NCBI GenBank assembly: GCA_041490525.1
Contig: JBGPTH010000014.1
Coordinates: 1,983-65,982 of the forward strand
Origin: Nitrospiria bacterium
Lineage (GTDB): Bacteria; Nitrospirota; Nitrospiria; Nitrospirales; NS-4
Direction of reading: 5' to 3'
DNA length: 64,000 nucleotides
The position numbers and the translations under genes were made by a program. Position 1 is the stretch's first letter. The number at the start of each line of letters is the position of its first letter. Below are positions 45,100 to 46,581 of the stretch, piece after piece. The notes beneath the pieces were generated by a model, which was given only the letters and a program-made list of their open reading frames with translations, was not told where the DNA came from and made no database searches.

Positions 45100-46581
45100 A
45101 TGAAAGCCGCACGGTTTCTGATCATCGGGCTGATCCTCGCTGTGGTTGGAGTTCTCAGCGGGCTGATCCAGGATGTGCGGGATGCCCAAGCCATCCCGGC
45201 CTTTGCGCGCAAGTATGACTTTGCCTGCAATGTCTGCCATGTGCCGTCGTTTCCGAAGCTGAACGATTTCGGGAACCTCTTCCGGGACCATGGCTATCAG
45301 CTCGGCACCGACCAGGAGCTCCCGACCTGGGAAGGACTGACCAAGGGCTACTGGCCGGTGTCGTTACGGACCACCGTGGGATACCAATTCCAAAGCAAAG
45401 GGGGCCTGGTTAACGCGACCTCCGGTGTGGGCGACGTCACAGCCACGACAGGGAGCTTTGGGTTCACCGGCCTGGATATCCTGAGCTTTGGTATCCTGGC
45501 CAGGGATATCACATTTGGCATGGTGTACACCCCGGGGCTTAAAAGTGCCGGATTTGGCACTGGGGCCAGCGATAGTGATCTGGAATCGGCCTTCATCAGG
45601 CTCGACAACCTCCAGCGCTTTGTGGGTCTTGGCGACAAGAGCTACCTCATGAACCTGAAGGTGGGCAAATTTGAGCTGGATCTCCCCTTTAGTGAGAAGC
45701 GGAGCCCCACGCTCAACACTCCCTTTTTGGTCTACCACTATTCCGCTGGATTTCCTGTCATTGGTGGTGGATTAACCGGCACCGTCAATCCCCTAGGGGA
45801 ACCGATCAACGACTTTGGCCTTGGAGATAACCACCCAGGGGCCGAGCTGGCCGGGATTGTCGCCACACCAGGCAATGGCTATTTCCGGTATTCGCTGAAT
45901 GCCATTTCGAACAGTGACGTCAACGACGACATGACCGGAGGGGGCCGGGGCTTCCATTTTTATGGCCATGTGACTCAATCCATTGACGGCTATGGAGTCG
46001 TGTCCGGGCAGCGGATCGGCGCGTACGTCTTGGCGGGGCGGGCGCCCACGGGCCCTAACCAGGCCTTCCCGGCGGCGGTCCCAGGCGGCCCCCCCCCAGG
46101 CCCCGGGACGGGTGAGAACAACCAGCCATTCTCACGGGTTGGCGTGGACGCGAGCCTGACCTGGGGGGGGCAGGTGAACGTCTTCGGAACCTGGATGTTC
46201 GCAAGGGATAGTAAGGACCTCTTCATCAATCAGGCGGCTCCTGTCGGGACGTTTCAAGCGGCTCACTGGAACGGCGGGTTTGTCGAAGCGGACTACAACC
46301 CGATTCAGATACCGAAGTGGCTGTTCATCTACCGGTACGATTGGATCACGAATACCCAACAACCGGACACCGGGCTTGCCCTGCCGGACGGCAGAGTTAT
46401 GGGAAACTTTAACAACACGCAGCAGCACACGGTGGGAATTCGGTACAACTTTCACATCTCCACCCGTACCGATACCGCCCTTCATCTCGAATACAGCAAT
46501 CTGCGAGGCAGGTACACTGCCGCATCAGGAGGGGATCAAATTCAGAATACGATGCTGGTCGGACTCGACTTCGCGTTATAG
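45100..46581 (+). CDS. Cyc2-like fused monohaem cytochrome c / outer-membrane beta-barrel
   Basis: Signal peptide ending AQA, then IPAFARKY...CNVCH..FPKLNDFG..F...GY; amphipathic strands; aromatic-containing barrel-type C-terminus (VGLDFAL). Confidence 0.8.
   Translation: MKAARFLIIGLILAVVGVLSGLIQDVRDAQAIPAFARKYDFACNVCHVPSFPKLNDFGNLFRDHGYQLGTDQELPTWEGLTKGYWPVSLRTTVGYQFQSKGGLVNATSGVGDVTATTGSFGFTGLDILSFGILARDITFGMVYTPGLKSAGFGTGASDSDLESAFIRLDNLQRFVGLGDKSYLMNLKVGKFELDLPFSEKRSPTLNTPFLVYHYSAGFPVIGGGLTGTVNPLGEPINDFGLGDNHPGAELAGIVATPGNGYFRYSLNAISNSDVNDDMTGGGRGFHFYGHVTQSIDGYGVVSGQRIGAYVLAGRAPTGPNQAFPAAVPGGPPPGPGTGENNQPFSRVGVDASLTWGGQVNVFGTWMFARDSKDLFINQAAPVGTFQAAHWNGGFVEADYNPIQIPKWLFIYRYDWITNTQQPDTGLALPDGRVMGNFNNTQQHTVGIRYNFHISTRTDTALHLEYSNLRGRYTAASGGDQIQNTMLVGLDFAL

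Follow-up and report, generated by a model that had tools for sequence, protein, structure and literature searches.

A Cyc2/Cyt572-family cytochrome-porin predicted in a Nitrospirales genome and its conserved SHOCT lipoprotein neighbor

Background

Among the described fused cytochrome-porins, the nearest validated relative of the protein considered here in the tree described below is Cyt572 of Leptospirillum (group II / L. ferriphilum, Cluster 3), reportedly described by Jeans et al. in 2008. The present work concerns an open reading frame (ORF) located at 45100..46581 of the forward strand of a 64,000-nucleotide stretch of contig JBGPTH010000014.1 (C14 below) from a Nitrospirales genome; this whole stretch is called the window. 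An earlier note, made from the sequence alone, had regarded the ORF as a Cyc2-like candidate Fe(II)/Mn(II) oxidase. Sequence comparison and structure modeling support, at the level of the protein family, that it encodes a Cyc2/Cyt572-family fused cytochrome-porin with a predicted location in the outer membrane.

Keffer et al. (2021) recognize Cyc2 proteins by an N-terminal signal peptide, by the motif AxPxFAR[Q/K][T/Y] shortly before the heme site, which they state to be unique to Cyc2, by a single CxxCH, by PxL four residues past it, and by a C-terminal 16-stranded porin with a fold like that of OprO/OprP (PMC8406198). OprP and OprO served there as templates for all Cyc2 proteins (PMC8406198), and the same two porins are named for Cyt572 (PMC10654088; 2026 FEMS review PMC13741234). 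Purified Cyt572 has the Edman N-terminus YPGFARKYNF, i.e., it is cleaved at AANA/YPGF, and carries the heme motif CSFCH (PMC13741234, FEMS review). Oxidation of Fe(II) has been shown for Cyc2 of Acidithiobacillus ferrooxidans, for Cyt572, for Cyc2 PV-1, for a Cyc2 of Ghiorsea, and, in another Nitrospirota lineage, for a Cyc2 of the Cluster 3 type (PMC8406198, PMC13692758, PMC13647500).

The presence of Cyc2 homologs in nitrite and ammonia oxidizers of the order Nitrospirales is already published, and the window gene adds a member. Garber et al. (2020) found cyc2 homologs in Ca. Nitrospira defluvii with FeGenie and suggested iron oxidation (PMC7005843). Yu et al. (2022) reported Cyc2 homologs in nitrite- and ammonia-oxidizing Nitrospirales (PMC9040806). 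These homologs share both protein family and bacterial order with the window Cyc2. The idea that nitrifiers may oxidize Fe(II) is also in print. The only elements that we did not find described are a conserved SHOCT lipoprotein partner, which is mentioned in neither of these two works (PMC7005843, PMC9040806), and a differently wired duplicate of the gene.

Results

Features of the Cyc2-like protein

The ORF has an ATG start and encodes 493 amino acids (aa). A ribosome-binding site GGAGG (45088..45092, + strand) can be read in the sequence 7 nt 5' of the start codon. The signal peptide and the string of IPAFARKY, CNVCH, and PKLNDFG quoted in the earlier note are present exactly: the protein begins with MKAARFLIIGLILAVVGVLSGLIQDVRDAQA / I32-PAFARKY39, which is followed by DFA, C43NVCH47, VPSF, P52KLNDFG58, NL, F61, RDH, and G65Y66. 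In the predicted signal peptide (residues 1–31; 45100..45192), a basic n-region leads into a hydrophobic core, and A-Q-A stands directly before I32. We took DAQA/IPAF as the predicted cleavage site because its position is homologous to the Edman-verified site AANA/YPGF of Cyt572. The signal peptide is followed by a monoheme cytochrome domain (residues 32–86; 45193..45357) and by a 16-stranded beta-barrel porin domain (residues 87–493; 45358..46581 with the stop codon) that ends in ...GLDFAL; all of these parts lie on the + strand.

The segment A31-I-P-A-F-A-R-K-Y39 fits AxPxFAR[Q/K][T/Y], with R37 five residues ahead of C43. The heme site C43NVCH47 (45226-45240, + strand) is the sole CxxCH, and its cysteines are the only two in the protein. 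PxL is represented by P52-K-L54, four residues (VPSF) past H47. We searched the six-frame translation of the genome, 5.6 million residues, for the strict motif A.P.FAR[QK][TY]-x3-CxxCH-x3/4-PxL. The strict form was found once and a relaxed form twice, the two relaxed hits being both cyc2 genes of the genome. Thus the motif is not a chance pattern.

The earlier note had described the remaining ~400 aa as barrel-like, and structure modeling bears this out. An AlphaFold2 model, built from an alignment of 25 homologs with 54–78% identity, has a predicted TM-score (pTM) of 0.73 and 16 strand elements over residues 87–492. The predicted local distance difference test (pLDDT) score is below 50 at residues 21–84, as is expected for a heme domain modeled without heme. 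A Foldseek search of the model against PDB gave OprP (2o4v, E 1.4e-11) and OprO (4rjw, E 2.7e-11) as the top matches, with TM-scores of ~0.5–0.6, followed by PorB and Omp32; all of these are 16-stranded porins. By published description, Cyc2 of A. ferrooxidans (Cluster 2) and Cyc2 PV-1 of Mariprofundus ferrooxydans (Cluster 1) have the same monoheme plan with a 16-stranded, OprO/OprP-modeled barrel and the same motifs (PMC8406198). Scans with Pfam and NCBIfam assigned the Cyc2-like protein to no family; since these libraries carry no curated Cyc2 model, this result says nothing against Cyc2 membership. A sequence search against PDB returned only chance matches to KaiC.

Family, phylogeny, and relation to Cyt572

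More than 895 clusters at 90% identity are related to the Cyc2-like protein, nearly all of them labelled "hypothetical protein", and a library clustered at 50% identity contains 1318 representatives of the family at E ≤ 0.001. In the alignment of the 25 homologs mentioned above, the stretch A31–Q67 is nearly invariant and the barrel is variable. The complete motif with one heme site and an identical three-residue spacing was found in 82 of 82 homologs from several phyla, and P52 and L54 are conserved in 100% of 78 aligned family sequences.

Cyc2-like matches occur in 93 of the 301 Nitrospirota genomes surveyed. Two complete genomes of this survey were recognized, by exact sequence identity, as Leptospirillum ferrooxidans and L. 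ferriphilum ML-04. The protein of the latter (P0279) starts with ...KAANA/YPGFARKYNFPCSFCH and has the heme motif CSFCH. Its exact N-terminus YPGFARKYNF together with CSFCH identifies it as Cyt572. BLASTP aligns residues 27–492 of the Cyc2-like protein with residues 24–559 of Cyt572 at 25% identity (E 7e-28). Both proteins share one layout: cleavage directly before x-P-x-F-A-R-K-Y, then three residues, CxxCH, PKL, and a barrel ending in DFA-x. Cyt572 belongs to the same phylum as the host of the window Cyc2, but it is ~70 residues longer due to loop insertions, and its PxL stands three rather than four residues past CxxCH. It also comes from an extreme acidophile and has an unusual heme (PMC8406198), while the window Cyc2 belongs to a neutrophilic-type sediment nitrite oxidizer.

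A maximum-likelihood tree was built for 78 family members. In this tree the window copy, a paralog on contig C4 of the same genome, and a protein of the metagenome-assembled genome (MAG) NS_8 (L003) form a clade with support 100/99 within the Nitrospirales clade. Compared with the Nitrospira homologs reported previously, the window copy thus belongs to a distinct, duplicated sub-clade. The sister of the Nitrospirales clade is Cyt572, with a long branch and modest support of 89/72. Cyt572 has been placed by others beside a dense cluster of Nitrospira and Acidobacteria homologs (PMC10654088), and this placement together with the sister relation suggests an affinity of the Cyc2-like protein to Cluster 3. 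Orthologs with 50–59% identity to the window Cyc2 occur in Nitrospira MAGs, one of which is labelled clade B.

The assignment to Cyc2/Cyt572 proposed in the earlier note therefore holds: the protein shows every feature of Cyc2 membership that we examined, i.e., the signal peptide, the motif, the single CxxCH, PxL, the OprO/OprP-like barrel, and full-length homology to the validated Cyt572.

Several Nitrospira-type Cyc2 genes are deposited under the labels Petrachloros mirabilis, Elusimicrobiota, and "Nitrosospira sp. NOB2" (P0120, L013, L021). The Petrachloros mirabilis record names its Cyc2 a "peptidoglycan recognition protein family protein". The genes under these three labels are probably mis-binned contigs or mis-annotations, not real transfers.

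A SHOCT lipoprotein encoded next to cyc2

The gene directly upstream of the cyc2-like gene (44218..45051, + strand; it ends 48 bp before cyc2) encodes a lipoprotein of 277 aa with the lipobox cysteine Cys19. The protein begins with MDWNCRLIIVCLALLGQSC and carries the lipoprotein signal LLGQSC; Cys19 is nearly invariant in 26 homologs. A conserved alpha/beta domain of ~200 aa is joined by a Pro-rich linker to a SHOCT domain at the C-terminus (PF09851, E 1.7e-9). The AlphaFold2 model of this protein has a mean pLDDT of 77.7, with 111 residues at pLDDT of at least 90. A Foldseek search of the model against PDB gave no significant match (best E 0.41).

The family of the partner is small, 146 clusters; for the few with a named source, this is Nitrospirales or Nitrospiraceae. 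Match coordinates of the partner and of Cyc2 were compared in the same 55 genomes: 23 of the 24 full-length partner homologs in Nitrospirales lie within ~350 bp of a Cyc2-like gene. The pairs span divergent Cyc2 subfamilies and are found in tandem, convergent, or divergent orientation. Among the retrieved loci of the Cyc2 family, the pair was seen in 16 Nitrospirota loci. The linkage survives rearrangement, which argues for a functional pair. Judging by this conservation, the Cyc2-like protein probably works with the SHOCT lipoprotein in the outer membrane, and the two may be in physical contact. In the library of papers searched, none names both "SHOCT" and "Cyc2".

We regard 44218 as the most likely start of the partner gene given the 277-aa gene call in the database (P0322), the lipoprotein signal, and the position of a promoter candidate. 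On the same grounds we rejected a longer reading of 318 aa that starts at 44095. The promoter candidate is sigma-70-like (TTGACT, 17 nt, TATGGT; 44143..44171, + strand). It was the only match of a consensus scan in the region, and shuffled sequences gave 0.7 hits on average, so it is weak evidence; its position suits the start at 44218 better than the start at 44095.

Gene context of the two cyc2 copies and of the wider family

In the window, the cyc2-like gene lies downstream of trpFBA and the SHOCT lipoprotein gene and upstream of convergent HbpS-like, DUF5069, and DUF3386 genes. Unlike in the rus operon of A. ferrooxidans, no cyc1, rus, or cox gene adjoins the window copy, and its host has no heme-copper oxidase; the rus-like arrangement of cyc2 beside periplasmic carriers and an oxidase is thus not found at this locus.

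The second cyc2 copy of the genome (C4:9843-11348) encodes a protein of 501 aa, 71% identical to the window copy. It is preceded, with gaps of 14–34 bp, by the genes of a multi-pass membrane protein (246 aa, one CxxCH) and of a 120-aa class-I cytochrome c, the latter at a distance of 34 bp. The whole tight same-strand cluster (C4:9353-15221) comprises a P-type ATPase, the 246-aa membrane protein, the 120-aa cytochrome c, the second cyc2 (cyc2b), and a 118-aa lipoprotein-like ORF, but no oxidase gene. The two copies are a lineage-specific duplication and are differently wired; the C4 cluster looks like a more complete wire from the outer to the inner membrane than the window copy.

Across the family, 67 of 82 loci have a class-I cytochrome c as the immediate neighbor of cyc2. 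The distant relatives in Acidobacteriota, Gemmatimonadota, and Eisenbacteria share an operon headed by cyc2, with genes of a dihaem cytochrome c, X248, coxB, coxA, and coxC following in this order. This cyc2-coxBAC operon was seen in four loci (L032, L034, L035, L081) and in ~30 further ones, and it parallels the rus operon of A. ferrooxidans. X248 has a C-x2-H-x2-M site and a CarboxypepD_reg domain and weakly matches type-1 copper proteins from end to end (E 0.02–0.2). In Nitrospira MAGs, an X248-type gene lies directly 5' of cyc2. The cyc2-coxBAC context is the best indirect support for the suggestion that the family takes up extracellular electrons and passes them to an oxidase.

Host genome and respiratory chain

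The host genome (2.82 Mb, 99% complete) belongs to a small-genome family of Nitrospirales outside Nitrospiraceae, which is represented in our sample by only one other genome. A fragment of NxrA of 824 aa with a Tat signal (C42:1-2473, − strand) matches Kuenenia NXR-A (PDB 7b04) end to end with 1100 bits. On this evidence the host very probably oxidizes nitrite with a periplasmic NXR. Next to it are genes of a histidine kinase and a sigma-54-type response regulator. The fragment is cut by the end of contig C42, as would be expected if a multi-copy nxr locus had been collapsed.

No match to PF00115, the heme-copper oxidase family, was found in the host genome, while control genomes gave matches. 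The genome encodes three bd-like oxidases and many class-I cytochromes c. Two of the bd-like oxidase genes adjoin X248-like genes and a dihaem cytochrome c gene on contig C2 (C2:36952-57086). There are four X248-like genes (cupredoxin-like with CarboxypepD_reg) in the genome; two of them lie in this region of C2, and another site is C28:32209-34325.

The richest multiheme protein, of 597 aa, is encoded at C21:34338-38591 (− strand). It has an N-terminal FHA-like cytoplasmic domain, one transmembrane helix, and 10 CxxCH. Its gene adjoins that of a protein with four hemes, and upstream lies the gene of a large FAD / cNMP-binding / 4Fe-4S protein. The 10-heme protein appears to be an unusual signaling-type multiheme membrane protein. 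We considered it as a second, MtrAB- or PCC-like conduit and rejected this candidate, since the protein is anchored in the inner membrane (FHA, transmembrane helix) and has no barrel neighbor.

Proposed function and its alternatives

Given the observed architecture, family membership, and conserved gene contexts, we infer the substrate, the direction of the electron flow, and the electron acceptors as follows. Electron transfer from Fe(II) across the outer membrane is the reading that we favor, with moderate confidence. The signal peptide would be cleaved at DAQA/IPAF, and the mature protein would reside in the outer membrane with its ~55-residue monoheme c-type domain attached to, and probably tucked into, the 16-stranded barrel. 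Dissolved Fe(II) would enter the pore and reduce the single heme by one-electron transfer. Soluble class-I cytochromes c of the periplasm would take over the electron from the heme and feed a high-potential chain shared with periplasmic NXR and ending at Nitrospira-type bd-like oxidases. This route is suggested because the host has no heme-copper oxidase. A sediment nitrite oxidizer may use Fe(II) as an accessory electron donor or oxidize it as a toxicant. The cyc2 locus is present in at least 24 sequencing runs, 23 of them labelled sediment metagenome, which makes Fe(II) plausible in the habitat. The SHOCT lipoprotein may assist assembly, docking, or oligomerization.

A number of observations weigh against this reading. 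Apart from H47, no His or Met is conserved throughout the broad family that could serve as the distal heme ligand; H290 is conserved from Nitrospirales to Leptospirillum, but in less than 85% of the broad family. The validated relative is distant, with its identity of only 25%, its long branch, and its modest support of 89/72. Keffer et al. call the functions of Cluster 3 the most uncertain and note that Cyt572 may be unrepresentative (PMC8406198). No cytochrome c, cupredoxin, or oxidase gene adjoins the window copy, and in the run search no RNA run contained the gene. The distribution is patchy: a copy is missing from the sole other genome of the same family and from 19 or more genomes of the order. 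This makes the cyc2-like gene accessory and its energetic role indistinguishable from detoxification. Metal oxidation by this protein is plausible, and the caution of the earlier note that distant Cyc2 homologs are functionally unverified was right.

The patchy, accessory distribution would suit a non-energetic role, in which the protein is a protective oxidase of Fe(II) or other reduced metals that shields the periplasm, a redox sensor, or a solute porin (e.g., for nitrite) with an accessory heme. The window copy is unconnected to respiratory genes and paired with a non-redox lipoprotein, and the best barrel matches, OprP and OprO, are anion-specific porins. However, all Cyc2 proteins resemble OprP and OprO (PMC8406198), non-nitrifying phyla keep the family in oxidase operons, and the near-invariant cytochrome domain argues that the heme is central to the function. 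We therefore hold a non-energetic role to be unlikely. In another reading, the protein is of the same class but differs in its partner or direction: it would exchange electrons with further extracellular redox species, e.g., an electrode, a syntrophic partner, mineral surfaces, or humic substances, or it would export electrons to Fe(III) without oxygen. Keffer et al. allow that Cyc2 may have additional functions (PMC8406198), the family is widespread in organisms not known as iron oxidizers, and midpoint potentials of Cyc2 homologs vary widely, that of Ghiorsea Cyc2 being -130 mV (PMC13692758). Yet a small heme buried in a 16-stranded pore is thought to be limited to dissolved species (PMC9040806), the conserved link of distant relatives to genes of cytochrome c and aa3-type oxidases points inward, to oxygen, and every member assayed to date oxidizes Fe(II); such another partner or direction seems quite improbable to us.

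The earlier note had also suggested Mn(II) as a substrate, as proposed for Cyc2 of Candidatus Manganitrophus, and this suggestion gained no specific support. In Manganitrophaceae, a family of the same phylum, Cyc2 is one of the candidates whose genes are shared and highly expressed (PMC9040806). It is not specific to Mn oxidizers, however; the lineage-specific candidate is PCC_1, a porin with a dodecaheme cytochrome (PMC9040806). In the 99%-complete host genome no ORF has 12 or more CxxCH, the maximum being 10 in the inner-membrane-anchored protein that has no adjacent barrel. The genome thus offers no candidate for the dodecaheme PCC_1, which the work on Manganitrophus treats as central, and the Manganitrophus-type set of PCC_1 alongside Cyc2 is absent from it. 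The host has NXR and looks like a nitrite oxidizer, and no Cyc2 has been demonstrated to oxidize Mn(II). We consider a Mn(II) oxidase very improbable.

If the favored reading, Fe(II) oxidation, is extended to the SHOCT partner, Cyc2 of Nitrospirales could be a two-component outer-membrane unit. It would need the dedicated lipoprotein of unseen fold as a periplasmic heme-cytochrome c dock, an oligomerizing scaffold, or a gate, and would let sediment nitrite oxidizers that lack a heme-copper oxidase respire Fe(II) via bd-like oxidases. We find this extended proposal doubtful; if it is true, a major guild of nitrifiers would have iron as a second lithotrophic substrate. The SHOCT partner is in any case a concrete second component to co-express, and heterologous tests of distant Cyc2 proteins could fail without it.

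In soils, sediments, and wastewater treatment, most nitrite is oxidized by Nitrospira-type bacteria. Should their Cyc2 homologs indeed oxidize Fe(II), nitrifiers would tie the nitrogen cycle to the iron cycle at oxic-anoxic interfaces, and surveys that take cyc2 as a marker of iron oxidation would need to include them. The locus described here adds a clean, well-anchored example of Cyc2 in a nitrite oxidizer without a heme-copper oxidase.

Other features of the locus

The earlier note had pointed out that the region is less GC-rich than the flanking trp genes. The difference is real (0.584 for the cyc2-like gene against 0.65–0.67 for trpF, trpB, and trpA) but uninformative: the gene falls at the 16th percentile of same-length segments of the genome (mean 0.624, sd 0.042). 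The GC content is similarly low in the cyc2 paralog (0.566) and in the partner lipoprotein gene (0.582). The dip is thus ordinary compositional variation and no evidence of transfer. Low GC as a sign of horizontal transfer was rejected in view of this percentile and of the placement of the protein in a coherent Nitrospirales clade.

The three convergent genes downstream of cyc2 (46682-48541, − strand) encode an HbpS-like protein (haem-degrading/GlcG-type, PF03928), a DUF5069 protein, and a DUF3386 protein. This trio is not conserved beside cyc2 in related loci. A perfect 11-bp hairpin, CGGACCAGGCC with the loop GAGCG and GGCCTGGTCCG, lies at 46640..46666 between the convergent cyc2 and HbpS-like genes. 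A terminator scan did not call it, as it has no T tract; it is possibly a bidirectional terminator lacking a T-run.

A respiratory cluster is situated at positions 1-3780 of the window, 41 kb from cyc2. A bd-like oxidase gene (PF01654 in the N-terminal half, 617-aa frame) begins just 5' of the window, at C14:746, and is followed by class-I cytochrome c matches in the window ORFs ~1064-2032 and 2698-3780.

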